Shown here piece after piece: positions 789 through 46,962 of a stretch of 64,000 nucleotides of DNA. The notes beneath the pieces are model-generated. The model saw nothing but the letters and a program-made list of their open reading frames with translations, was not told the DNA's origin and made no database searches. The position numbers and the translations under genes are program-made. Position 1 is the stretch's first letter; each line of letters opens with the position of its first letter. The DNA is from Parcubacteria group bacterium LiPW_41 (GTDB lineage Bacteria; Patescibacteriota; Minisyncoccia; UBA6257; GWB1-50-10): the NCBI GenBank assembly GCA_007375535.1, contig VMEM01000002.1, positions 20,265 to 84,264 of the forward strand, given 5' to 3'.

Positions 789-857
789 TACAAGATACGA
801 ACACCCACACCGTTTTCGGGTGTGGGTGTTTTTTCTCTTTCGCGATATAATAGATGT

Positions 858-1190
858 ATGAGAATTGAAATTAATGCAGTGCGCCTTGAGCTTACTGAGG
901 CATTAAAAGAATACGTAGAAAATAAAATCGGAGGGGTTGCGAGAATGGTTAAAAAATTTGAGGCTAATGGAGAACTTATTGCGTTTGTGGAAATATCAAA
1001 AACAACACGACACCACAAACAAGGAGATATATATTATGCAGAGATTACAATGAAACTTCCTCAAAAGACGATCAGACTCGAAAAGACACACGAAGATATG
1101 TATGGAGCAATTGATGAAATTAAAGACCTTTTTAAAGAAGAGATTTCAAAATTAAAGGAAATAAATATTAGCAAAACAAAAAACAAATAA
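858..1190 (+). CDS. hpf: ribosome hibernation promoting factor / ribosome-associated inhibitor (HPF/RaiA family)
   Basis: MRIEINAVRLELTEALKEYVENKIG... is a typical sigma-54 modulation/HPF N-terminus. The start was moved to the internal Met, which sits 6 nt after a TATAAT box. Confidence 0.75.
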   Translation: MRIEINAVRLELTEALKEYVENKIGGVARMVKKFEANGELIAFVEISKTTRHHKQGDIYYAEITMKLPQKTIRLEKTHEDMYGAIDEIKDLFKEEISKLKEINISKTKNK

Positions 1191-4781: not shown

Positions 4782-5444
4782 ATGCTTACGGAGAAAAATA
4801 GAAGAGAAAAAGAGTTACAAAAAAGAGCAATAAAAATAATTAAAGCACTTACTTGTATGTATCCACATGCGAAGGTTTTTCTTAATTATTCAAATCCATT
4901 TGAACTTCTTGTGGCGGTAATGCTTTCAGCACAATGCACCGACAAAAAAGTTAATGAGGTTACTGAAAAATTATTTAAAAAATATAAAACGATTGACGAT
5001 TACGTGAAGGCGGGGAGAGCAGAAAAAACGGTTCTAGTGTTTGAGAACGACATAAGACAAACTGGTTTTTTTCGAGTAAAAGCAAAGCATATTTTATTAG
5101 TTGCAAAAATTATTCAAGAAAAATATAAAGGAATGATTCCTGATAATATGGAAGAACTAACAGCTCTTCCTGGAGTTGGAAGAAAAACTGCAAATATTAT
5201 TTTAGAGTCAGCGTTTGGTATTGTGGTTGGAATTCCGGTTGATACGCACGTGTTTAGACTTGCTCATAGATTCGGTCTTTCAAAACAAAAAACACCCGAT
5301 GGCGTTGAGAAAGATTTGTGTAGAATAATACCAAAACGATATTGGGCTGGGCTTTCATATAAGCTCATTTCGTATGGACGAGAGTATTGTCCTGCGAGAG
5401 CGCACGATCATGCATTGTGTCCACTTTCTAAAATTGGGGTATAA
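4782..5444 (+). CDS. nth: endonuclease III (HhH-GPD DNA glycosylase/lyase)
   Basis: HhH motif LPGVGRKTANII and a C-terminal 4Fe-4S cluster loop C-x6-C-x2-C-x5-C (CPARAHDHALCPL). Confidence 0.8.
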   Translation: MLTEKNRREKELQKRAIKIIKALTCMYPHAKVFLNYSNPFELLVAVMLSAQCTDKKVNEVTEKLFKKYKTIDDYVKAGRAEKTVLVFENDIRQTGFFRVKAKHILLVAKIIQEKYKGMIPDNMEELTALPGVGRKTANIILESAFGIVVGIPVDTHVFRLAHRFGLSKQKTPDGVEKDLCRIIPKRYWAGLSYKLISYGREYCPARAHDHALCPLSKIGV

Positions 5445-5451
5445 TTGATAT

Positions 5452-6354
5452 ATGAAAAAGCCACACGTTGTTGTCCTTGGAATGGGAGAAATAGGGACAG
5501 TTTTGTTTTCCTTGGTAAAAAAGCGTGGATATTCTATTGAGGCGTGGGATAAGGTTCCACAAAAGGTTCCTCATCAGAAATCATTATTTGAAATCATTCC
5601 AAAAGCTGACATATTGTTTTTGTGTATTCCGTCTTGGAATTTACCAAATGTTGTAAAGTCTATTGGTCCGTTTATCCACAAACAAACGATTATTGTGGGG
5701 CTCGCAAAGGGTTTGCAAGCAACAAAAGAGACTCCATATACGTTTCTATCGAATTCGTTTCCTCACAATGAAGTGGTGATGCTTGGTGGCGCAATGCTTG
5801 CCGAAGAGGTTGCACTTGGAATGCCTGGTATTGCAGTTTTTGCAGGGAAAAAAGAAAGTGCACGCGTTTTAGTTAAAGATTGTTTTAAAAATACTAATGT
5901 TGTCTCTTTTGAGTCAAAGGATCCAGAGGTGAATTCTTTTTTGAGTATTTTAAAAAATGTTTATGCTTTAGGTCTTGGAATAGGAGATGGAATTGGGTGG
6001 GGTGGAAATGGGAGAGCTCTTCTTGCTCTTGAGGCATTAAAGGAAATGGAATTATTGTGTTCACTAAAAGGAATTAAGAAAGATCTTGTGTATGGGCAGT
6101 CTGGTTTTGTTGATCTTATTGCTACAGGATTTAGTGTGTATTCAAAAAATGTTGAAGTAGGAAAACTTATTGTTTCAACAAAAAAGACGCTACCAAATAG
6201 TGAGGGTCTTGTATCACTTGAGCCACTTAAGAAAATTATTGGGAGTTCTTCTTCGTTTCCTCTATTTAATGCCATTTATCAAGCGGCACTAAGGAAAGAA
6301 AAAGCAGGCGTGATTTTTTCTCGTTATATTAAAAAAATTCAACAGAAGGGGTAA
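5452..6354 (+). CDS. gpsA: NAD(P)H-dependent glycerol-3-phosphate dehydrogenase
   Basis: N-terminal Rossmann fold (VVVLGMGEIGT). Blocks AKGLQ, LGGAMLAEEVALGMPG, KNVYALGLGIGDGIGWGGNGRALL and GFVDLIATG align to conserved GpsA blocks. Confidence 0.7.
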   Translation: MKKPHVVVLGMGEIGTVLFSLVKKRGYSIEAWDKVPQKVPHQKSLFEIIPKADILFLCIPSWNLPNVVKSIGPFIHKQTIIVGLAKGLQATKETPYTFLSNSFPHNEVVMLGGAMLAEEVALGMPGIAVFAGKKESARVLVKDCFKNTNVVSFESKDPEVNSFLSILKNVYALGLGIGDGIGWGGNGRALLALEALKEMELLCSLKGIKKDLVYGQSGFVDLIATGFSVYSKNVEVGKLIVSTKKTLPNSEGLVSLEPLKKIIGSSSSFPLFNAIYQAALRKEKAGVIFSRYIKKIQQKG

Positions 6355-9424: not shown

Positions 9425-10902
9425 ACCTTTTTCCTCACAAACGGTCCAATCGGGGTGTCTTCTATACTGTATCCTAATGTATCTATTTGTTTTCTCAAGG
9501 TGTCGGCGGGGGTAAACTGTTTATTACTCCTGCATAACTCACGTTTCTCTACTATTTTTGTTATTGATGATGGAATTTTCTCTTCTTCTATCTCAATTCC
9601 TAGTATTTTTAGGCTTGTTTTGATTGTCTTTTTTGCGCGGCGAGCGGTTGCTGGGGAGAGTTTCCAGGTGATTGAACGAATAGAATTTGTGTACTTAAAC
9701 AATGCCGCAATGGCTTCCGGAGTGTTAAGGTCGTCGTTCATTGCTTCTTCAAATTCTTTTTTTAGTATATCTTCAATATTTTTAACAGATTTATCTGTCT
9801 CTTTATTTATTTTTATTTTTTTATTTTCTATAAAAGAAAGAGCGTCGAGGAGACTAGTAAAGGTGTCAATTGCGGTATACGCCTGAGTGATAAGTGAGTC
9901 ACTCCATTGAATTGGAGATCGATAGTGGTGTGAAGTGATTATAAAACGAAGTATATTTTTTGAATGAATATGAAGAAAGTCTTTAATTGTGAAAAAGTTT
10001 CCTAAACTTTTTGACATTTTTTCTCCATTTATTCGCAACGATCCTGTATGAAGCCAAATTTTAACAAACGGGATTTTTCCTGATGCTGATTCTTGTTGTG
10101 CAATTTCTGCTTCGTGATGTGGAAATTTCAAATCTCCACCTCCTCCGTGGATATCATACTGCGGTCCAAACCATCGTTCTGTTATTGCAGTGTCTTCGAT
10201 GTGCCATCCTGGACGGCCCCATCCCAATTTTGTATTCCATGCTGGTTCGCCATTTACGATGACGAATTTTTTCTTCTTGTCTTTTTCTTCTACTTTCACT
10301 TCCTTCCAAAGAGCAAAATCTCCTTTGTTTCTCTTTTCTATTTGTTCATCAATTCGTGTAACTGCATCTTCTGCTTGGGTTATAGTTCTTCGAGAAAGTT
10401 TTCCGTATTCTTTAAATGTTGTTATATCAAAATAGTATCCCTGACCACTAATGTAGTATGCATTTCCTTTTGTTATTAGCGTCTGTATTTGATTTTCTAT
10501 CTCCTTTATATGGTCGGTTGCTCGGGCGTATCGATTTACTGATATGCACCCAATCGCCTTCATATCATTTTTATAGAGTGATTCAAATTTCCATGCATAA
10601 CGAAGTGGATTCTCATCGTGCATTCTTGCGCGGTCAATAATTTTATCATCTACATCAGTGATGTTTTGCAAATAAACCATTTTCCATTTCTTTGAACGAA
10701 TGAACCGTGCAAAAACATCAAACGCAATATATGTTCGAGCGTGTCCAATATGTGAGTAATCAAACACGGTTGGTCCACAAACAAAAAAATGCAATGGATT
10801 TTTTTGCGAATATAGAACTTCTTCTTTTTGTCCCGAAAGTGAATTTAAAAGTCTCATTGCGTATATGAGAGCATTATATAGTGAGTAGGCAACAACGTAC
10901 AA
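9409..10902 (-). CDS. cysS: cysteine--tRNA ligase
   Basis: Class I HIGH motif (HIGHARTY) and KMSKS motif (KMSKSLGN). Confidence 0.9.
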   Translation of the reverse strand: MYVVAYSLYNALIYAMRLLNSLSGQKEEVLYSQKNPLHFFVCGPTVFDYSHIGHARTYIAFDVFARFIRSKKWKMVYLQNITDVDDKIIDRARMHDENPLRYAWKFESLYKNDMKAIGCISVNRYARATDHIKEIENQIQTLITKGNAYYISGQGYYFDITTFKEYGKLSRRTITQAEDAVTRIDEQIEKRNKGDFALWKEVKVEEKDKKKKFVIVNGEPAWNTKLGWGRPGWHIEDTAITERWFGPQYDIHGGGGDLKFPHHEAEIAQQESASGKIPFVKIWLHTGSLRINGEKMSKSLGNFFTIKDFLHIHSKNILRFIITSHHYRSPIQWSDSLITQAYTAIDTFTSLLDALSFIENKKIKINKETDKSVKNIEDILKKEFEEAMNDDLNTPEAIAALFKYTNSIRSITWKLSPATARRAKKTIKTSLKILGIEIEEEKIPSSITKIVEKRELCRSNKQFTPADTLRKQIDTLGYSIEDTPIGPFVRKKVCIKL

Positions 10903-15321: not shown

Positions 15322-15343
15322 TTAGTTATTAGTTACGATTATG

Positions 15344-15378
15344 GATCCCCATCTGTTTAACAGGTGGGGATTTTTATT
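15344..15378 (+). terminator. rho-independent terminator
   Basis: gatccccatctg-ttta-acaggtgggga followed by a T-run. Confidence 0.6.
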
Positions 15379-15400
15379 TTTTATTCTATAATTCAGGTAT

Positions 15401-16174
15401 ATGGGAGTATATTACAATCCAAAACGAACGAGGAATATATTTAATCCAGATTCAAAAGAACCATTTCAATTAAGTAGATCAAAAATTGATAATTTTTTAA
15501 AATGTCCGCGGTGTTTTTATATAGATCGGAGATGTGGTGTGGGACAACCGCCATCATTTCCATTTAATTTAAATAGTGCAGTAGATACATTATTAAAAAA
15601 AGAATTTGATACTCATCGAGCACGCAATAAAATTCATCCACTTATGGAGGCATACAAAATCGACGCTGTTCCATTTGATCATCCAAAAATGGATGAGTGG
15701 CGCGATGCGTTGCGACGAGGAATGAAATATTTTTATGAGCCAGCGAACCTGATTATTCAAGGGGCAGTCGATGATGTGTGGAAAAATAATAAAACAGGAG
15801 AATTAATAATTGTTGATTACAAAGCAACTGCAAAGGAAGGAGAGGTATCCTTAGACGCCGATTGGCAAATCGGGTACAAGCGACAAATGGAACTTTATCA
15901 GTGGTTGTTTCGGAAGAATAATTTTTCCGTACAGGATATCGGATATTTTGTATATTGTAATGGAAAGACAGATCGATTCGCATTTGATGGGAAATTAGAG
16001 TTTGATGTGTCTCTTTTACCATATGAAGGAAGGACAGAATGGGTTGAACCAACTCTCATGTCTATCCAAAAATGTCTTATGAGTGATTCACTTCCAGATT
16101 CTGCTGAGGATTGTGATTTTTGTCTATATCGAGATGCTGTGTCTAAAATTGAAGGGAATAATAAAAATGTGTAA
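15401..16174 (+). CDS. PD-(D/E)XK nuclease, Cas4/RecB-like, with Cys clusters
   Basis: Nuclease core IIVDYKATAKEG...QIGYKRQMELYQWLF (D...EXK-like motif). N-terminal Cys cluster CPRCFYIDRRC and C-terminal CDFC. No CRISPR array or other cas genes are present. Confidence 0.55.
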   Translation: MGVYYNPKRTRNIFNPDSKEPFQLSRSKIDNFLKCPRCFYIDRRCGVGQPPSFPFNLNSAVDTLLKKEFDTHRARNKIHPLMEAYKIDAVPFDHPKMDEWRDALRRGMKYFYEPANLIIQGAVDDVWKNNKTGELIIVDYKATAKEGEVSLDADWQIGYKRQMELYQWLFRKNNFSVQDIGYFVYCNGKTDRFAFDGKLEFDVSLLPYEGRTEWVEPTLMSIQKCLMSDSLPDSAEDCDFCLYRDAVSKIEGNNKNV

Positions 16175-18337: not shown

Positions 18338-18367
18338 TTGACTTTAATACCTACTTCCGTTTAGAAT
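18338..18367 (+). promoter_or_regulatory. sigma70-like promoter for the tRNA pair
   Basis: ttgact, spacer of 17-18 nt, then tagaat, about 20 nt upstream of tRNA-Lys. Confidence 0.45.
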
Positions 18368-19187: not shown

Positions 19188-19201
19188 GGTATACTATAGA
19201 T

Positions 19202-19681
19202 ATGAGTGGCCTTATGAAGATTGGTTCTTTGTTGTTTGGAGTCGCTATTGGTGCGGGGATTTTTTCTTTTGTGGTACTCAATAAGACACAGACACTTGAG
19301 AACAAAAAAGAGGTTAGGGTGAATAATCAGATAATCATCGCTGAAGTAGTTAAAACTGATAAAGCACGAGAGCGTGGGCTTTCAGGAAGGGAGTCAATTG
19401 GAGTAAACGAAGGGATGTTATTTGAATATCTGGGGAATGAGCAGGTAACGTTTTGGATGAAGGATATGAAATTTCCGATAGATATTGTATGGATTCGTGA
19501 TGGAATAGTAATTGGTTTTGAACAGAATGTTGATCCACAGGTTGGAGTCTCAGAAGATATGCTTAATCGATATAATTCTCCGGAACCGATAACACAAGTA
19601 TTAGAACTTCAAGCGGGGAGAGCAAAAACTCTTCGACTTTTTGTTGGGGCGCACATTGTGACTAAACCACTGGTTCAATAA
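19202..19681 (+). CDS. DUF192 domain protein, membrane anchored
   Basis: GLSGRESIGVNEGMLFEY...FWMKDMKFPIDIVWI matches the DUF192 (COG1430) core. Confidence 0.6.
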   Translation: MSGLMKIGSLLFGVAIGAGIFSFVVLNKTQTLENKKEVRVNNQIIIAEVVKTDKARERGLSGRESIGVNEGMLFEYLGNEQVTFWMKDMKFPIDIVWIRDGIVIGFEQNVDPQVGVSEDMLNRYNSPEPITQVLELQAGRAKTLRLFVGAHIVTKPLVQ

Positions 19682-19688
19682 TAAATTT

Positions 19689-20885
19689 ATGAAGAAATAT
19701 TTTGGTGTTTCTCGAAATGTGTTTTTTTTGGGGATTGTCAGTATGCTGAATGATTTCTCGAGTGAAATGATTCAGGCAATCATGCCAATTTTTTTGACGG
19801 CGACGCTCGGTGCTCCTGTTTTTGTTGTTGGTCTTATTGAGGGAATAGCTGATGCACTTGCTAGTGTTTTAAAGATTGTATTTGGTTGGGTTTCGGATAA
19901 GTGGAAGATTAGAAAGAAATTTGCTGTTGCTGGATATATTTTATCTGTTTCAACTCGTCCGTTCCTTACTCTTGTCTCAAGTTTTTGGCACATCTTTTTT
20001 CTTCGTTCTATTGATAGGATCGGAAAGGGAATGAGAGACGCACCGCGTGACGCGTTAATTTCTGAATCAACTGATTTTGATATGGTTGGAAAATCATTTG
20101 GTTTCCATCGTATGATGGATACTTTTGGTGGTATGATGGGCCCGCTTCTTGTGTTTCTTCTCCTCCCTGTATTTTTTGGATCATATCAACTTATTTTTCT
20201 TGTTGCTTTTGGGATTGGTGCTCTTGCCGTTATAACATTTGTTTTTGTTGAAGAGCCGGTTCATAAAGAAGAAAAAATACCAGTCGTTGCTCCACGGATG
20301 AATTTTTCTTTTTTAAGAAGTAATAGGAGGTTTTCTTTATTCCTGTTTTCTATTTTTATTTTTGGTCTTGGTACGCTTCCAATAGCGCTTTTGTTGTTGC
20401 GTGCTCCAAGTATAGGAATTGATGTAAAATATGTTCCTATTTTTTATCTCATATATCATATTGCGTTTTTGACCGCAGCATTCCCTTTGGGGAAAATTGC
20501 TGATTCATTTGGAAGGCGACGAATTATTGTATTGGGATTTTTTGCGGCTCTTGTTTCGTATATTTCACTTATATTTGTTGAGACATTCTTTGGGTTGGTT
20601 ATTTCATTTATTCTCTTTGGTATTTATAGTGCTGCTACTGATGGAGTTGAGAGAGCGATTGCTGCACGATGGGTTGATGCACATTCTCTTGCAATGGGAC
20701 AGGGGTTGCTCAATGCTGCAGTTGGTATTTCTGCTCTTCTTGCTGGTGGAATTGGTGGATTGTTATGGACATACGTTAGTCCAGAAGCAACATTTGTGTA
20801 TGCCGCAACTCTGTCGCTTGTTGGGAGCTTGCTGTTTATCTTTCTTCTTAATGTACGTTTTAAGGATGCAAAAGAAGCGGTATAA
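19689..20885 (+). CDS. MFS transporter
   Basis: 12 predicted TM helices and MFS signatures (G-x3-D-R/K-x-G-R-R-like loops GWVSDKWKIRKK and GKIADSFGRRR). Confidence 0.6.
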   Translation: MKKYFGVSRNVFFLGIVSMLNDFSSEMIQAIMPIFLTATLGAPVFVVGLIEGIADALASVLKIVFGWVSDKWKIRKKFAVAGYILSVSTRPFLTLVSSFWHIFFLRSIDRIGKGMRDAPRDALISESTDFDMVGKSFGFHRMMDTFGGMMGPLLVFLLLPVFFGSYQLIFLVAFGIGALAVITFVFVEEPVHKEEKIPVVAPRMNFSFLRSNRRFSLFLFSIFIFGLGTLPIALLLLRAPSIGIDVKYVPIFYLIYHIAFLTAAFPLGKIADSFGRRRIIVLGFFAALVSYISLIFVETFFGLVISFILFGIYSAATDGVERAIAARWVDAHSLAMGQGLLNAAVGISALLAGGIGGLLWTYVSPEATFVYAATLSLVGSLLFIFLLNVRFKDAKEAV

Positions 20886-20893
20886 TAGAATCA

Positions 20894-21907
20894 ATGAAAA
20901 ATATTGCGATAAATGGATTTGGGAGAATAGGGCGCTTGTTCCTTCGTAGTGCTTTACAAGATTCATCAATGCAGGTTGTTGCTATTAATGATTTGGGAAA
21001 CATTGAGAATCTCGCATACCTTTTTAAATATGATTCGGTGTATGGGGCGTATAAAGGAGAAATTTCTGTTTCTGGAGATTCTCTTATTATTGATGGGCGC
21101 ACCATTCAGTTTTTACAGGAACGTGACGCATCGAAACTTCCCTGGGGTTCTATGAATGTTGACGTGGTGCTTGAGTGCACGGGAGTGTTTGAGTCTTTTG
21201 AACAAGCGAACGTTCACATAGCTTCTGGTGCAAAACATGTAATTATTTCCGCTCCAGCAAAAGATGCTGACGGCGTGCGTGATGGGAAAACAGTATTGAT
21301 GGGGATAAATGACGACGATATAGCAAAACATCCAATTACATCAAATGCATCATGTACTACTAATGCGTCGGCGCCAGTGATCCAAGTAATGAATGAGACG
21401 ATTGGAGTTGAGAAGGCGGTATTAAATACGGTGCACGCATACACCGCAACGCAAAATATTGTTGATGGCCCTACAAAAGGAAGTGACTATCGAAGAGGAA
21501 GAGCGGGAGCGTTTAATATTTCTCCTTCAACAACTGGTGCTGCACTTGCTGTTTCTCGTGTGGTTAAGGAGCTTGAGGGGAAGTTTGATGGGGTAGCGAT
21601 GAGAGTTCCGACAATTTCTGGTTCTGTGGCCGATATTACATTTATTTCGAAGCGACCTACAACAGTAGAGGAGGTTAACTCTCTGTTAACAGAGGCGTCA
21701 AAAATGGAACGATGGAGTGGGATTTTAGGGGTTACTAATGAGCAGTTAGTTTCATCTGATATCTTGGGAATGCCATTTGGTGCGATTGTCGATCTTGGAT
21801 TTACGAAAGTAGTTGGTGGGAATCTTGTGAAAGTTCTTTCATGGTATGACAATGAGGCAGGCTATGTTTCTACTCTTATAAAACACGTTAAGAAAGCTTT
21901 TAAATAA
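20894..21907 (+). CDS. gap: glyceraldehyde-3-phosphate dehydrogenase
   Basis: INGFGRIGR and the active-site region ASCTTNA. Confidence 0.9.
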   Translation: MKNIAINGFGRIGRLFLRSALQDSSMQVVAINDLGNIENLAYLFKYDSVYGAYKGEISVSGDSLIIDGRTIQFLQERDASKLPWGSMNVDVVLECTGVFESFEQANVHIASGAKHVIISAPAKDADGVRDGKTVLMGINDDDIAKHPITSNASCTTNASAPVIQVMNETIGVEKAVLNTVHAYTATQNIVDGPTKGSDYRRGRAGAFNISPSTTGAALAVSRVVKELEGKFDGVAMRVPTISGSVADITFISKRPTTVEEVNSLLTEASKMERWSGILGVTNEQLVSSDILGMPFGAIVDLGFTKVVGGNLVKVLSWYDNEAGYVSTLIKHVKKAFK

Positions 21908-21914
21908 GGATTTT

Positions 21915-22943
21915 ATGAAGAAGATAATCATAATTATATTTTTAATTTTGATTATCTTCTTTTTTTTGTTTTTTATATTTAAACAAAAGATTAATAACGC
22001 GCAGGAAAAAGAAATCGCTTCCATTATTCAAATGAATAATGCAATAACTCGATTGCAAAAAATAGAGGAAGAAGAAAAGAACAAAAAAGAAGAACTTTCT
22101 CTCTTGTTCGTTGGAGATGTAATGCTTTCTAGAGACATTGCTAAAAAAATACAAATAAATGGGGATCAAAAATTTCCCTTCCTTTCGGTTGCGGAAAAAT
22201 TGAGCGGAGCTGATATTGCTGTGGGCAACCTTGAAGGCCCAATTTCTTCACGAGGAAGAAATCAAGGAAGTAAGTATTCGTTTCGTGCAAATCCTGAAGT
22301 GATTGAAGGAATTCAATATGCTGGTTTTGATTTATTTTCGCTTGCAAACAATCATATCTTTGATTGGGGACGAGACGCACTAGAAGACACAATGTTGATT
22401 CTTTCGAGTTCAAGTATTAATTTTTCTGGAGTTGGAAAAAATTATGAAGATGCAAACAGGGTAACGGTTATAAAGAAGAAAGGATATTTAGTTGGATTTT
22501 TGTCTTTTACTAATTTATATCCGAAAACATTATTTGCAACAGATAAAAAATCAGGAATTAGTGAGTATGATGAAAAAAAGATTTTGGAACGAATTATTGC
22601 CATACGAAAAGAAGTTGATGTTGTGGTGGTGCTTCTTCATTGGGGAAATGAATATGAAACAAATTCAAACAATACACAGAAGAAATTTGCTCGAGAATTG
22701 ATTGATGTGGGGGCGGATATGGTTGTTGGACACCATCCACATGTCGCACAAGAAGTCGAGAAGTATAAGAATGGAATTATTGCATATAGTTTGGGGAATT
22801 TTGTATTTGACCAAGGATTTTCAAAAGAAACAATGAAGGGATTAGCACTTGATGTGAAGTGTATTGAAGCGCATACATGCTCCGCAAAACCAATTGAAGT
22901 TTTAATAAACAACGATTTCCAACCAACGTTTTCAGGGTTATAA
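21915..22943 (+). CDS. CapA/PGA_cap family metallophosphatase-like protein, membrane anchored
   Basis: N-terminal TM; LLFVGDVMLSRD, LANNHIFDWG and GHHPHV motifs. Confidence 0.7.
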   Translation: MKKIIIIIFLILIIFFFLFFIFKQKINNAQEKEIASIIQMNNAITRLQKIEEEEKNKKEELSLLFVGDVMLSRDIAKKIQINGDQKFPFLSVAEKLSGADIAVGNLEGPISSRGRNQGSKYSFRANPEVIEGIQYAGFDLFSLANNHIFDWGRDALEDTMLILSSSSINFSGVGKNYEDANRVTVIKKKGYLVGFLSFTNLYPKTLFATDKKSGISEYDEKKILERIIAIRKEVDVVVVLLHWGNEYETNSNNTQKKFARELIDVGADMVVGHHPHVAQEVEKYKNGIIAYSLGNFVFDQGFSKETMKGLALDVKCIEAHTCSAKPIEVLINNDFQPTFSGL

Positions 22944-22950
22944 TTACTTT

Positions 22951-23451
22951 ATGCTCATATATATTGGAGCCGATCATCGGGGATATGCTATAAAAGAATA
23001 TTTGAAGGTTTTTTTGAAAGAAGGTGGATACACTGTTTCTGATGTTGGCGACCTTCAATTAGATGAAAATGATGACTACACTGATTTTGCTTCTAAAGTT
23101 GCGGAGCGAGTGAGTGTCGATTATGACCGAAGTAAAGGAATTCTTGTTTGTGGTTCAGGTGCTGGAATGACTATTACCGCAAATAAGTATCCAAATGTTC
23201 GTGCGGGAGTCGCTCTTACTCCAGATCAGGCATATGATTTGCGGAACGATGATGATGTGAATATTTTAGGAATTGGCGCAAACTACACATCTCCCGAGCA
23301 GGCAAAAAAAATAGTTGTTACGTGGTTACAAACCCCATTTGCTCGAGAGGCACGGTTTCGTCGCCGCCTTGAAAAACTTTCTCAGATTGAAATGAAAATT
23401 AATCGTCCAGAATTTGGTGGAACCCCTTATGAACATAATTCCAACGATTAA
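22951..23451 (+). CDS. rpiB: ribose-5-phosphate isomerase B
   Basis: MLIYIGADHRGY...CGSGAGMTITANKYPNVRA. The start is 6 nt after TATAAT. Confidence 0.85.
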   Translation: MLIYIGADHRGYAIKEYLKVFLKEGGYTVSDVGDLQLDENDDYTDFASKVAERVSVDYDRSKGILVCGSGAGMTITANKYPNVRAGVALTPDQAYDLRNDDDVNILGIGANYTSPEQAKKIVVTWLQTPFAREARFRRRLEKLSQIEMKINRPEFGGTPYEHNSND

Positions 23452-24067: not shown

Positions 24068-24076
24068 TAATATAAT

Positions 24077-24113
24077 TTGACTAATTCGCCTACCTATTGT
24101 ATACAATAGGTAG
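24077..24113 (+). promoter_or_regulatory. promoter overlapped by a perfect 24-bp palindrome (candidate operator)
   Basis: ttgact, 17 nt, tataca; palindrome ctacctattgta|tacaataggtag at about 24090-24113; an AAGGAG RBS precedes the ATG at 24142. It could alternatively act as a weak terminator for rpe. Confidence 0.4.
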
Positions 24114-24141
24114 TATTTTAATAACATAAAGGAGAATAGAA

Positions 24142-24846
24142 ATGAAAGATACAATAGCAGTTTCAGATGCTGCGTTAATCTTGGGTAGTGAGAGAGTTAT
24201 AAATGCTTCTCTAATAGGAAAAGCATTTGTACATTCAGAAAATGCACTTTATGAAAAGACTGGTTATACTCGCGAACAACTTGAATCTGCCGCTGACTCA
24301 AATAATAAAGGGTTGGCGAATTGGTTTCTTGTGTATCACTCGGGAAAATCACCAAAGGAAATTCTTAACGAACGATTTGAAAATCTTGAGTTTGGATTTG
24401 GAGAAACAGATCGGTTTTATAAAAATCATTGGTTCTCATATTCAAATGAAAGCTTCTGGACTGAAAAAAAAGAAAAAGCTGGATATTATCTTCTTAACTT
24501 CGGAGGCGAAGAAGATGAATCTCGAGAGTTGAGATTTGAATCTATGACGTTTTCAGAGCAAGAAGAGAAAATACGCTTTCTTTTTGAGAAGAGGCGTGCG
24601 CCCTTTAATATTGTTATGGAGGCAGTTTTTTCAATTTATGATTCTTTCGGAATTCTCTTGTTGAAACAGTGGAAGCATTTAAGTGATACAAGAATTCATG
24701 ATGGCCGTCTTTTATATTTGGGCGGTACTGCCTCAAAGAGTAATAAAAAAATGATGAATGTTTTTGGATTCCCAAAAGAACAAGAATCTGATCCAAAATA
24801 TTATTATGGTTTTGGTATGGTTCTTCTGATGAGAAAATGGGAATAA
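24142..24846 (+). CDS. hypothetical protein
   Basis: 234 aa with no recognisable motif. It has its own SD and terminator. Confidence 0.4.
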   Translation: MKDTIAVSDAALILGSERVINASLIGKAFVHSENALYEKTGYTREQLESAADSNNKGLANWFLVYHSGKSPKEILNERFENLEFGFGETDRFYKNHWFSYSNESFWTEKKEKAGYYLLNFGGEEDESRELRFESMTFSEQEEKIRFLFEKRRAPFNIVMEAVFSIYDSFGILLLKQWKHLSDTRIHDGRLLYLGGTASKSNKKMMNVFGFPKEQESDPKYYYGFGMVLLMRKWE

Positions 24847-24857
24847 AAAAATAATTT

Positions 24858-24886
24858 TTCCCCACACTATGTGGGGATTTTTTATT
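24858..24886 (+). terminator. rho-independent terminator
   Basis: tccccaca-ctat-gtgggga followed by TTTTTT. Confidence 0.65.
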
Positions 24887-24909
24887 TGGTACAGTTTATA
24901 CTTAGATAT

Positions 24910-25357: not shown

Positions 25358-26373
25358 AATTCTGCTTTTTCCAACCAGCGGAGCGTTTTTTCATTTGTGA
25401 GCGTTTCCTCTATATAACTCTTGAAATCTTCTGGGTTTAGGTTGGGGTAATGCATCATTGCTTGTTTTATCTCTGCTTCTATTTGTTCCTCGTCAGGAGT
25501 TATTTTTTCTTCTTTCGCGATTTCCTGAATTATGAATTTTGTTTTTAGTTGCTCTTCGATTGATTCTCTTTTTGCTTTGATGAATTCTTCTTCGGTTTTC
25601 TTTATATTTTTGAAATAGTCCTCAAGAGACATTTTATGTTTCTCAAGATCTTTTGTGAGACGATTGAGTGATGCATAGATTTCGTCATCAACCATTGGAA
25701 GGGGAAGAGTAATTTCTGATTCAGAAATTAGTTTTTTAACGAGAGCCTCAAAGTTTTCTCGTGACGTATCGAGTTCTTTTTCTTTCTTTATATTTTCTTT
25801 GAGTTTGGTTCTGAAATCTTCAACCGACTCAAAGTTTCCAAGTGTTTTTACAAATTCCTCATTGAGTTCTGGGATTGTTCCTTTTTCATCTTTTCTAAGT
25901 TCTTGGAGCTCTTTTATGACTTGTTCCACATCTGACTCGGTTACCTCAACCGTTTTTTCTTTTGATTTTATTTCTTTTGCTATTTTTTTGTAGTTAGGAA
26001 GTTTTACTTTTGGTGCAACCGCTACAGTGATCTTAAACTCCAATGGATTTCCTAATGCAAGTTTAACAATGGTAACGCGTGGCGCACTCATTGGAACAAT
26101 TGAGTGCATGTGGAGTATGTGGGGGTAGGTTTCGCTCAACGCTTCTTCTGCTGCATCCTCTAATACATGGTTTTGATCTACCTGTTTTTCAATAATATCT
26201 TTTGGTGCGTGTCCTTTGCGGAATCCTGGAACATCCGCCTCTTTTGCAACTCCCTCAATTACTTTTTTTCGATGCTTTTCAATTGTTTCTGCATCTATTG
26301 TTCCCGAAATTTCAATGACTGCGTCTTTTGGCTCTGAAATAACAACCGAAAAATTATCATGATTGTGTGACAT
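25354..26373 (-). CDS. tig: trigger factor
   Basis: Ribosome-binding N-domain with GFRKGHAP and a C-terminal chaperone arm. The PPIase domain is apparently reduced. The start is placed at MSHNHD. Confidence 0.7.
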   Translation of the reverse strand: MSHNHDNFSVVISEPKDAVIEISGTIDAETIEKHRKKVIEGVAKEADVPGFRKGHAPKDIIEKQVDQNHVLEDAAEEALSETYPHILHMHSIVPMSAPRVTIVKLALGNPLEFKITVAVAPKVKLPNYKKIAKEIKSKEKTVEVTESDVEQVIKELQELRKDEKGTIPELNEEFVKTLGNFESVEDFRTKLKENIKKEKELDTSRENFEALVKKLISESEITLPLPMVDDEIYASLNRLTKDLEKHKMSLEDYFKNIKKTEEEFIKAKRESIEEQLKTKFIIQEIAKEEKITPDEEQIEAEIKQAMMHYPNLNPEDFKSYIEETLTNEKTLRWLEKAEF

Positions 26374-26485
26374 ATATTTAGACCTATTATATAGGTCAAA
26401 ACGCAAAATGCAAATCAAAATTATAAATGGCGAAAAGAAGAAAACTCTCAATTAAAAATCAATAATAAATTTCATAAGACGTAAG

Positions 26486-27582: not shown

Positions 27583-27639
27583 TATTGTGTTTATTTTCTT
27601 TTTTCTATAATCTAATTTTGTACTTTAAAAGGAGGATTT

Positions 27640-37331: not shown

Positions 37332-37359
37332 TTGACTTCTTTTTTGATTTCCCTATAAT
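37332..37359 (+). promoter_or_regulatory. candidate rRNA promoter (TTGACT, 16 nt, TATAAT)
   Basis: Consensus hexamers about 300 nt upstream of the 16S 5' end. Confidence 0.5.
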
Positions 37360-37659: not shown

Positions 37660-39150
<1,491 letters not shown>

Positions 39151-39391
39151 ACACTTAAGTCGTAAAAAACTTTAATTTTTTAAAATGATGTGTATAACAG
39201 TTCGCTGTACGCGATCAATCGAGTAATCGAGGAAATCAACGCAGAAGGAATGATGCATACTATCGAGAGGTGTTAGCCGATAAACCTCAAATATGTCTCG
39301 GCTACGAATATGGTAAATGTCTAATTGGTTTATTATGTTCGGTGGGACGACCAAGAAAGTACTTGAAATGAATTTATTTTTATCTTTAATA

Positions 39392-39428
39392 AAAAACCCC
39401 GCCAGTCTATGGACTAGCGGGGTTTTTG
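39392..39428 (+). terminator. rho-independent terminator downstream of the 16S gene
   Basis: aaaaaaccccgccagtc-tat-ggactagcggggtttttg. Confidence 0.7.
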
Positions 39429-39471
39429 TTTATAGAAATTATCTTTATATAGTGCTATACTATGAACAAAT

Positions 39472-39861
39472 ATGGCTGGAAAAACGATACTTATTGTAGA
39501 AGACGAATCTTTGCTTGGAAATTTATTGAAACAGAGGTTGGAACATGAAGGATTTACTGTAATTTGGTGTAAAGATGGAGAAGAGGCGGTTAATGTACTC
39601 CGATCAAAAAAACCTGATCTTATTTTGCTTGATCTTATTTTGCCAAAAATCTCTGGATTTGAATTATTGGAGACAATGCAAGCAGATCCTCAACTTGAGC
39701 GCGCTCCTGTTATTATTACCTCAAATCTTGGACAAGACAGCGATGTTGCTCGTGGGCAATCACTTGGTGCGATTGAATATTTTGTAAAAGCAAAAGTTTC
39801 AATTGAAGAATTAGTTGATCACGTAAAAACAATGGTCGCAAATTTGCCAGTAAATTCATAA
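39472..39861 (+). CDS. single-domain response regulator (CheY/PilH-like receiver)
   Basis: ILIVEDE...DLILLDLILP...K with the conserved D-D-D-K positions and no output domain. It lies adjacent to the pilus genes. Confidence 0.75.
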   Translation: MAGKTILIVEDESLLGNLLKQRLEHEGFTVIWCKDGEEAVNVLRSKKPDLILLDLILPKISGFELLETMQADPQLERAPVIITSNLGQDSDVARGQSLGAIEYFVKAKVSIEELVDHVKTMVANLPVNS

Positions 39862-39879
39862 ATTTGTTATTATAGTCAG

Positions 39880-40473
39880 ATGAAACGTGGTTTCACTCTT
39901 ATTGAACTCCTAGTAGTAATAGCTATATTAGCAATTCTCGCTACTGTTATCGTTGTTATCATCAACCCTGGTGAACTATTAAAGCAAGCACGAGACACTA
40001 CTCGTATTTCTGATCTTGCAGCAATAAACAGTGCAATAGCATTGTATCTATCGGATGTAACTACCCCATATTTGAAAAATGGTGCTGCCTGTACTGCAGG
40101 AACACACTATGGAACTGTTGTGCCTTCTCCAGCTACATCAACTCCATTTGCTGTTGCAGGAAGTGTTGCTGCTGCGACCGGTGTAACAACTTCAGTTTCT
40201 GGAGCTGGTTGGGTAAGTGTTAACTTCACTTCGATCTCATCAGGTTCTCCTCTTGCTCGTCTTCCAATGGATCCACAAAATACTCAGACTTATTACTATG
40301 CCTATGGATGTGGAACTGGAACATTAAATGGCGATCTTAGTTACGAAGTGAATGCAAAAATGGAGAGTACGAAGTATGGAAGTTCATCAAGTACTGCAAA
40401 CGTTGTCTCAAATGTAAAAGATGGTGGAGACAATGCAACGTGGTACGAAATTGGAAACAATCTAACTCAGTAG
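39880..40473 (+). CDS. type IV pilin (prepilin N-terminal methylation/cleavage motif), paralog A
   Basis: MKRGFTLIELLVVIAILAILA is a class III signal (G|FTLIEL, Glu5). The C-terminus has a Cys pair. Confidence 0.8.
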   Translation: MKRGFTLIELLVVIAILAILATVIVVIINPGELLKQARDTTRISDLAAINSAIALYLSDVTTPYLKNGAACTAGTHYGTVVPSPATSTPFAVAGSVAAATGVTTSVSGAGWVSVNFTSISSGSPLARLPMDPQNTQTYYYAYGCGTGTLNGDLSYEVNAKMESTKYGSSSSTANVVSNVKDGGDNATWYEIGNNLTQ

Positions 40474-40524
40474 ATTTGTATAAAAAGGTCTGTCTGATAT
40501 AATAAACAAAAGTTTAAATAAACT

Positions 40525-41109
40525 ATGAAAAAAGGTTTTACCCTCATTGAATTGCTTGTTGTTATTGCGATCCTTGCAATTCTCGCTACTGTTATCGTCG
40601 TTATCATCAACCCTGGTGAATTGTTAAAGCAAGCACGAGACACTACTCGTATCTCTGATCTTGCAGCAATAAACAGTGCAATTGCATTGTATCTATCAGA
40701 TGTAACTACCCCATATTTGAAAAATGGTGCTGCCTGTACTGCAGGAACGCACTATGGAACAGTGGCAGTTTCTACATCGACTCCATTTGCTGTTGCGGGA
40801 AACGTTCTTGCTGCGACCGGTGTAACAACTTCAGTTTCTGGAGCTGGTTGGGTAAGTGTTAACTTCACCTCGATCTCATCAGGTTCTCCTCTTGCTCGTC
40901 TTCCAATGGATCCACAAAATACCACCACATATTACTATGCCTATGGATGTGGAACTGGAACATTAAATGGCGATCTTAGTTATGAAGTGAATGCAAAGAT
41001 GGAGAGTACAAAGTATAGCGCGGGTGGAGGAGGAGATGTTGTCTCAAATGTAAAAGATGGTGGAGACAATGCAACGTGGTACGAAATTGGAAACAATCTA
41101 ACTCAGTAA
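40525..41109 (+). CDS. type IV pilin, paralog B (about 93% identical to A)
   Basis: Same leader and about 80 identical N-terminal residues. It differs in two short patches (PSPATSTP/SSSSTAN versus AVSTST/AGGGGD). Confidence 0.8.
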   Translation: MKKGFTLIELLVVIAILAILATVIVVIINPGELLKQARDTTRISDLAAINSAIALYLSDVTTPYLKNGAACTAGTHYGTVAVSTSTPFAVAGNVLAATGVTTSVSGAGWVSVNFTSISSGSPLARLPMDPQNTTTYYYAYGCGTGTLNGDLSYEVNAKMESTKYSAGGGGDVVSNVKDGGDNATWYEIGNNLTQ

Positions 41110-46833: not shown

Positions 46834-46962
46834 ACAATTTTAATTTACAAATTTTAAATTTCAATTTAATGCTTCAATGACTCAATTTTAAAATTTATTC
46901 ACTTAGAAATTCAATTAAAATTTGAAATTTAAAACTTAGAATTTATCAGGTATAATGAATCT
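46834..46962 (+). repeat. ~105 bp AT-rich repeat element, copy 2, ending in GGTATAAT 6 nt before the ATG
   Basis: See copy 1. The terminal ggtataat-gaatct-ATG indicates a promoter for a leaderless transcript. Confidence 0.6.

Follow-up and report, generated by a model that had tools for sequence, protein, structure and literature searches.

We analyzed a 64,000-nucleotide (nt) stretch of contig VMEM01000002.1 from Parcubacteria group bacterium LiPW_41 (here called the window), in which a TATAAT-like hexamer recurs 6 to 8 nt upstream of ATG start codons. The window has a GC content of 37% and reads cleanly in genetic code 11, with open reading frames (ORFs) that match Pfam families, and it carries a 16S rRNA gene (37662-39155) together with three tRNA genes. 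An initial annotation had cited ten such hexamers, and when we rechecked the coordinates, every one of the ten was present as described. We now count 12 strong cases, and all window cases start with ATG.

Several of the genes lie directly behind intrinsic terminators. On the plus strand, hpf (ATG at 858) has TATAAT at 846-851, a spacer of 6 nt, and a terminator (799-831) plus a T tract upstream; terminator, hexamer, and ATG together occupy 799..860, and a leader would not fit between them. A PD-(D/E)XK nuclease gene (ATG at 15401, plus strand) follows a terminator at 15343-15373 and has TATAAT at 15387-15392 with an 8-nt spacer. The same spacer separates TACAAT (31807-31812) from the ATG of parB (31821, plus strand), which lies behind a terminator at 31765-31784. 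Gene 24910 (plus strand; TATACT at 24897-24902, 7-nt spacer, terminator at 24859-24877) is a weaker candidate. Gene 35032 (plus strand; TATTCT at 35020-35025, 6-nt spacer, terminator at 34977-35000) is a weak one with two mismatches.

Other cases sit in short junctions with an upstream gene, again on the plus strand. The glycolytic gene gap (ATG at 20894) starts 8 nt after pgk, with cggTATAAT upstream (hexamer 20881-20886, 7-nt spacer). rpiB (ATG at 22951) follows a 7-nt gap and carries gggtTATAAT (hexamer 22939-22944), a DUF192 gene (ATG at 19202) follows a 14-nt gap and carries gggTATACT (hexamer 19190-19195), and a pilin-like gene (ATG at 39880) follows an 18-nt gap and carries tTGtTATTAT (hexamer 39868-39873), all three with 6-nt spacers. 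For the pilin-like gene, a promoter scan also gave TTGCCA at -35 with an 18-nt spacer. gpsA, identified by its Pfam domains, has TATAAT at 5440-5445, G at -14, and a 6-nt spacer to its ATG at 5452, and the TAA stop of the nth-like gene upstream (5442-5444) falls inside the hexamer. The upstream gene's TAA stop lies inside the hexamer in three cases, those at 5452, 20894, and 22951.

The remaining sites lie elsewhere. Gene 46963 (plus strand; aggTATAAT, hexamer 46951-46956, 6-nt spacer) follows a 129-nt intergenic region, and two minus-strand genes are the first genes of divergent pairs: gene 28192, with tgcTACAAT (28204-28199) and a 6-nt spacer, and gene 11928, with TATAAT at 11940-11935 and a 6-nt spacer, which was absent from the initial annotation. 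The start codons of gap, rpiB, hpf, and the pilin-like gene are supported by Pfam matches that begin at residues 2-3 (profile positions 1-4); the S30AE match of hpf begins at residue 3. An independent gene call in a second assembly placed hpf and gpsA at the same ATGs. A Shine-Dalgarno (SD)-like 4-mer was found among the window motif genes only in the weak case 36643.

The hexamer is enriched at one fixed position. For the window we used 71 nonoverlapping ORFs whose starts were chosen blind to the motif (first ATG or longest ORF), and for relatives we used 571-644 ORF starts in 119 loci. These loci came from a scan of the 16S helix-45 sequence against one genome per species; all 119 are from Patescibacteria, mostly labeled Paceibacteria or Parcubacteria, and the nearest, L061 (JAGVBB010000007.1), is 96% identical to the window in 16S and ~70% identical in protein-coding DNA. 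Hexamers were counted if they had at most one mismatch to TATAAT, with A2 and T6 fixed. Such hexamers began at -12 in 11 of the 71 window genes (10 by the longest-ORF rule), compared with 0-2 at nearly all other positions between -40 and +12. When the -30..-1 region of each gene was shuffled, the count dropped from 11 to 1.1 ± 1.0, the highest of 2000 shuffles reaching 6, and the same local shuffle in the relatives gave 7.3 ± 2.7 against 54 observed.

An unbiased scan of all 6-mers at all offsets ranked TATAAT at -12 first both in the window (5 versus 0.15 expected; p=6e-7) and in the 119 relatives (23 versus 1.1; p=2e-22), where TATACT at -12 came second (p=3.5e-14). A positional k-mer scan had been suggested with the initial annotation, and it bore out that proposal: TATAAT at -12 was enriched over local composition in both sets. 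The peak does not depend on gene calls. Counting from every TATAAT in the window, an ATG followed at a spacer of 6 nt in 8 of 74 and at 7 nt in 3 of 74, while other spacers gave 0-3; in the relatives the corresponding counts were 40 and 33 of 666, against a background of ~10. Overall, an ATG 6 nt after TATAAT was ~4-8 times commoner than at other spacings. At the same spacer in the relatives, GTG was found 10 times versus ~5 (≤2-fold), and TTG was not enriched.

Independently of the -10 box, A-rich words were enriched at -8..-5 upstream of starts in the relatives (L002-L120), namely, AAAATA/ATAAAA at -8 and AAAA/AATA at -6. This enrichment recalls the A-rich non-SD context of Bacteroidota.

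The hexamer also has the anatomy of a promoter element. At -13/-12, perfect TATAAT was enriched 22x, variants at position 5 were enriched 7.4x, and variants at position 3 were enriched 5.4x, while mismatches at positions 1, 2, and 6 gave 1.8x, 2.7x, and 0.8x, respectively. This mismatch tolerance is of the TAnnnT type, as in the sigma-70 -10 element. An extended -10 signature lies upstream of the hexamer, with frequencies of 0.56 for T-17, 0.54 for T-15, and 0.57 for G-14. G-14 was present in 9 of 14 window cases (p=2.5e-4) and also in junction cases with gaps of ≤30 nt (0.52; p=1e-4), and the signature held in every gap class. In the window, T-15 was often replaced by G (GGTATAAT), while G-14 was conserved.

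Two reference promoters show how the same element is used elsewhere in the window. The 16S rRNA promoter (37332..37359, plus strand) consists of TTGACT, 16 nt, and TATAAT, and since TATAAT forms this promoter together with TTGACT, it is a -10 box in this organism. The tRNA-Lys/tRNA-Ser promoter (18338..18367, plus strand) consists of TTGACT, 18 nt, and TAGAAT. Intrinsic terminators, which were enriched over shuffles (27 versus 13.1 and 34 versus 14.1), end 14-32 nt before the starts of hpf, 15401, parB, 24910, and 35032, and the box fills the interval. With terminators adjoining them in this way, these five genes must be transcribed from very near the ATG.

The motif is conserved in relatives. 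We collected 72 distinct gap orthologues, whose ATG is anchored by the conserved INGFGRIGR N terminus, and found a strong -10 element within 60 nt in 35 of them. The spacer was 6 nt in 14 of these, 7 nt in 2, and 8 nt in 3, the rest being scattered over 10-47 nt, so that a box at spacer 6-8 was present in 19 of 72. The context upstream of the box was uniform (tgg/tgc/tgtTATAAT), and an SD-like 4-mer was found in 0 of the 72. The spacer peak at 6 nt was thus common to the window, the 119 relatives, and these homology-anchored orthologues. In L061, both the box and the 7-nt spacer of gap are conserved, and the 19202 box is kept as TATAAT with a 9-nt spacer. For rpiB of L061, an insertion of ~29 nt parts the upstream stop from the start, and tTGtTATAAT lies 6 nt before a GTG start. 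Because this box moved with the start codon, the motif tracks the downstream start and not the upstream stop; together with the conserved gap box, this means that the stop codon does not explain the motif.

The 16S rRNA of this organism has no anti-SD. Its sequence ends ...GGAUUAAUUACACU, where the usual bacterial sequence is GGAUCACCUCCUUU, and the 3' tail (39143..39156, plus strand) has GATTAATTACACTT instead of GATCACCTCCTTT. CCTCC is missing after helix 45 in 118 of the 119 relatives; the tail of L038 (Minisyncoccus archaeiphilus) is GATCATTTATTT. The initial annotation had linked the promoter-like hexamers to SD-poor gene starts and a noncanonical 16S tail, and the link agrees with the organism's own tail and with those of the relatives. 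SD-like sequences precede only ~5-10% of genes. We also looked for a hidden anti-SD, CACCTCCTT, downstream of the 16S gene and elsewhere; the window held no exact copy, and its 18 one-mismatch matches were not convincingly above the 11 expected. Tsurumaki et al. (2022, RNA 28:1041, PMC9297842) described anti-SD loss in a subgroup of Parcubacteria and detected the motif in only 48% of Parcubacteria. That paper leaves the mode of translation start open and never uses the word "leaderless."

From these observations we propose that the TATAAT-like hexamer at -12..-7 is a sigma-70-type -10 element, in most cases part of an extended -10 promoter that has G-14. RNA polymerase would then start at the A of the ATG or 0-3 nt before it, and the resulting mRNAs would be leaderless (spacer 6) or near leaderless (spacers 7-10). 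The ribosome would bind the 5'-terminal AUG directly, with no SD pairing, which the organism's 16S cannot supply anyway. The initial annotation had proposed mRNAs beginning at or next to the AUG, and the TAnnnT spectrum, G-14, the rRNA and tRNA boxes, the five terminators, the specificity for ATG, and the 6-nt peak all favor such transcripts, with 5' ends predicted from the sequence. We regard leaderless expression from these promoters as the probable explanation for this set of genes.

We estimated how widespread the arrangement is with a position weight matrix trained on the relatives only, setting the threshold at the 99th percentile of all ATGs. It placed 14 of the 71 window ORFs above the threshold, two of them probably false, with 4-6 more borderline, and we put the predicted leaderless-type share at roughly 17-25% of window genes. 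In the relatives, the one-mismatch excess at spacers 6-9 corresponds to ~14% of genes, and the predicted share in the 119 Paceibacteria loci is about 14-20%. The initial annotation had called the pattern widespread: it is indeed recurrent and includes the housekeeping genes gap, rpiB, gpsA, hpf, and parB, but in the window it is limited to the share given above. The remaining window genes are either tightly coupled (overlapping or with gaps of ≤10 nt), members of a small SD-like class, or members of a large class with AT-rich leaders and no recognizable signal.

Several observations weigh against the proposal. About 45% of genes lack the motif, an SD, and tight coupling alike, and leaderless initiation therefore accounts for only part of the picture. 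Half of the strong window cases (6 of 12) occupy 7-18 nt same-strand gaps in which no terminator is present, and these cistrons must therefore also be present on read-through transcripts. In the relatives, first genes carried the motif no more often than short-gap genes did, which is unlike a classical group C genome as defined by GeneMarkS-2, although starts called from ORFs become less reliable with long upstream regions, which biases the comparison. The -35 region is poor: there is a weak TT at -35/-34, and the best TTGACA match at 16-18 nt was only slightly above control hexamers, which suggests that these promoters depend on the extended -10. A two-hexamer promoter scan showed no overall excess (54, 53, and 55 sites versus 58.8, 58.1, and 56.3 shuffled) and was useful only for individual sites and terminators. 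Finally, both leaderless translation and the position of the transcription start site (TSS) are inferred, the latter from the usual ~7 nt that separate a -10 box from its TSS.

One alternative is that the promoters are genuine but that for many of these genes, especially the junction genes, most protein is made from read-through polycistronic mRNAs by termination-reinitiation, the internal promoters only adding transcripts. The six junction cases speak for it, as do the three boxes that contain the upstream stop and the similar motif frequency at short-gap and first genes in the relatives, and many of the other genes are joined to their neighbors by overlaps or very short junctions of the kind expected for translational coupling. 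However, the fixed 6-nt spacer and the ATG need have no selective reason in this scheme unless the 5' end matters. In addition, the rpiB gene of L061 keeps its 6-nt spacer ~29 nt away from the upstream stop, and terminator-preceded genes cannot use read-through at all. We consider this explanation unlikely.

We think it very improbable that the hexamer is instead a noncanonical ribosome-binding site (RBS) that pairs with the altered 16S tail, mRNA 5'-GGGUAUAAU-3' against rRNA 3'-UUCACAUUA-5'. The 6-8 nt spacing is indeed the usual SD spacing, the motif is found at operon-internal junctions, and the tail is AU-rich, with GGGUAUAAU pairing at 8 of 9 positions. Complementarity to the genome's own tail over -20..-4 was 3.82, compared with 3.72 ± 0.04 for permuted tails, a value reached by 1 of 200 permutations; yet genes with ≥6 nt of own-tail complementarity were not above permutation. 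The pairing would also place an A.C mismatch at the best-conserved A2, while the better-pairing TGTAAT was not enriched (1 case), and the motif frequency was 0.16-0.30 in all genome groups, whatever their 16S tail. T-17, T-15, and G-14 alongside the hexamer are a promoter feature, the box also precedes rRNA and tRNA genes, it stands 20-65 nt ahead of the start at leadered genes and in orthologues, and the hexamer is present in only ~20% of genes. We rejected alternative SD pairing on the mismatch spectrum, the tail-group split, and the tail permutation.

It is hardly credible that the hexamers are random matches in AT-rich intergenic sequence whose number is raised by upstream TAA stops lying 7-8 nt before the ATG: the genome is AT-rich, most of the 74 TATAATs in the window lie away from gene starts, 5-8 nt gaps ending in TAA are frequent, and AATAAT at 4782, 16185, and 19689 is largely stop driven, but the peak is confined to a single offset, no upstream stop is near in half of the cases, G-14 accompanies the hexamer, orthologues keep the motif wherever the stop lies, and such an artifact was ruled out by the local shuffles, the every-offset 6-mer scan, and the orthologue comparison.

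The initial annotation had set apart a class of genes with strong GGAGG sequences, and this separation stands: these are leadered genes, with -10 boxes 28-65 nt upstream. Genes 31137, 27640, and 24142 are on the plus strand. Gene 31137, which has a TTG start, spans 31070..31139 with its promoter, in which TTGACT, 17 nt, and TGaTATAAT (hexamer 31093-31098) are followed by a 38-nt interval holding GGAGG (31125-31129). Gene 27640 (ATG start; 27606..27642) has TATAAT at 27606-27611 followed by 28 nt holding AGGAGG (27628-27633), and gene 24142 (ATG start; 24071..24144) has TATAAT at 24071-24076 followed by a 65-nt leader with AAGGAG (24129-24134). Further GGAGG/AGGAG sites lie at 63275-63279 (gene 63287) and 29114-29118 (TTG-start gene 29126). 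Counting gene 40525 with genes 27640 and 24142, a -10 box lies 21-65 nt upstream. The window GGAGG genes, both TTG-start genes included, have leadered promoters and mostly encode orphan proteins without a Pfam match.

In the relatives whose 16S has no CCUCC, GGAG peaked at -11 (12 versus 2.4 per offset) and GGAGG peaked at -10 (6 versus 0.6). SD-like GGAGG/AGGAG at -13..-9 was present in ~5-8% of genes across the 118 genomes without CCUCC in 16S, a significant result. The GGAGG class is real and clade-wide, and it is paradoxical where the 16S has no CCUCC; this paradox of a functional-looking class was absent from the initial annotation.

In the leader of the orphan gene at 24142 (24077-24141), a hairpin with 10 perfect base pairs (24090-24113) precedes a T-rich tract. 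This layout resembles an attenuator, and part of it is conserved in L061. We also noted SD-less promoters with intermediate spacers of 10, 12, 15, and 21 nt, at 39456-39474, 26373-26391 (minus strand), 10857-10878 (minus strand), and 40498-40527. With their short leaders that lack an SD, these promoters suggest that leaderless initiation grades into SD-independent initiation on leadered mRNAs.

The surroundings of the 16S gene showed two further features. A noncoding stretch of ~180 nt at 39190-39370, between the 16S 3' end and a terminator at 39398-39425, is ~95% identical to L061, compared with ~70% for flanking coding DNA, and the sequences are unrelated beyond 39370. It had no Rfam match, its predicted folding was not significant (z=-1.07), and none of the other 199 loci contained a copy; it may represent either an unknown small RNA or a conserved trailer of the pre-rRNA. 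In the region 37662-39425, no 23S gene follows the 16S gene; the trailer and a strong terminator are followed by a response-regulator-like ORF at 39472. In L061, the 16S gene adjoins the rpiB/gap cluster instead, so the rRNA gene neighborhood has been rearranged between close relatives.

The signature described here gives a testable partial answer to how start codons are found in the large subgroup of Parcubacteria and Paceibacteria that lacks an anti-SD: in the window, the 119 related loci, and the 72 gap orthologues, a substantial minority of genes, core genes of glycolysis and housekeeping among them, bear the signature expected of leaderless mRNAs. It also matters for annotation, as gene finders that assume an SD will miscall starts in these genomes. 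Our literature search returned no paper pairing "leaderless" with Parcubacteria, and the few pairing it with Patescibacteria or the candidate phyla radiation (CPR) were irrelevant; searches for TSS data for Parcubacteria likewise found none. Nanosynbacter lyticus reportedly provides the only CPR TSS set cited in those parts of the literature that the searches reached.

A broader and more tentative idea is that anti-SD-less Paceibacteria have largely handed the choice of start over to transcription. Extended -10 promoters at gene junctions would give many packed genes their own mRNA with a 5' AUG, offsetting the lost SD:anti-SD pairing, and the GGAGG class would be read without a CCUCC tail. 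We consider this idea rather unlikely. If it were true, junction promoters, even those overlapping upstream stops, would compensate for the lost pairing.

We compared the pattern with known systems. Extended -10 promoters (TRTGn-TATAAT) are best known from Bacillus and other Firmicutes. Like them, the hexamers here carry T-17, T-15, and G-14 before TATAAT, with a -35 element that is weak or not required. Unlike them, T-15 is often G in the window, and the promoter would set the TSS on the start codon. The anti-SD-less Parcubacteria (PMC9297842) belong to the same lineage and show the same CCUCC loss; what differs is that the -10-at-ATG signal gives a partial answer to the initiation question left open there.

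The non-SD Bacteroidota (GeneMarkS-2 group B) resemble this genome in SD-independent initiation and in an A/T-rich upstream context, which here takes the form of the AAAATA/ATAAAA words at -8. There, however, the motif precedes all genes, first and internal alike, and cannot be a promoter (PMC6028130), whereas the motif here is found in ~20% of genes and has promoter anatomy. Mycoplasma code-4 genomes of group C are likewise reduced and AT-rich, with 30-60% of genes predicted to be leaderless and a short spacer (10.1101/2022.07.25.500264), and both RBS and promoter motif models have been derived for them in the same work. They belong to another phylum and use another genetic code, while the window reads as code 11.

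The pattern matches group C itself, exemplified by M. tuberculosis among the Actinobacteria and by D. deserti in Deinococcus-Thermus. Bacterial leaderless genes are diagnosed by a Pribnow box located 6-8 nt from the start codon (PMC6028130 for GeneMarkS-2 group C; PMC3160421 for the "TA-like signal" of Zheng et al. 2011), and group C genes, like those here, have the box at that distance and no SD. Some 25-50% of transcripts in group C are leaderless (PMC6028130, PMC3160421), which we count as a likeness, and the spacer mode of 6 nt found here equals the published mean promoter spacer of 6 nt in leaderless genes (MetaGeneMark-2 preprint, 10.1101/2022.07.25.500264). In group C, however, SD sites serve the other genes and the anti-SD is retained in the 16S, whereas here there is no CCUCC; the genome here is also low in GC and reduced, and the box often lies in 7-18 nt same-strand junctions, over an upstream stop, and not only before first genes. 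The pattern thus has the sequence properties of bacterial leaderless genes, except for the limitation to first genes and the use of SD sites elsewhere. Because Actinobacteria, Deinococcus, and Mycoplasma are already known for it, we regard the arrangement as a known kind extended to a new lineage and not as a new mechanism.

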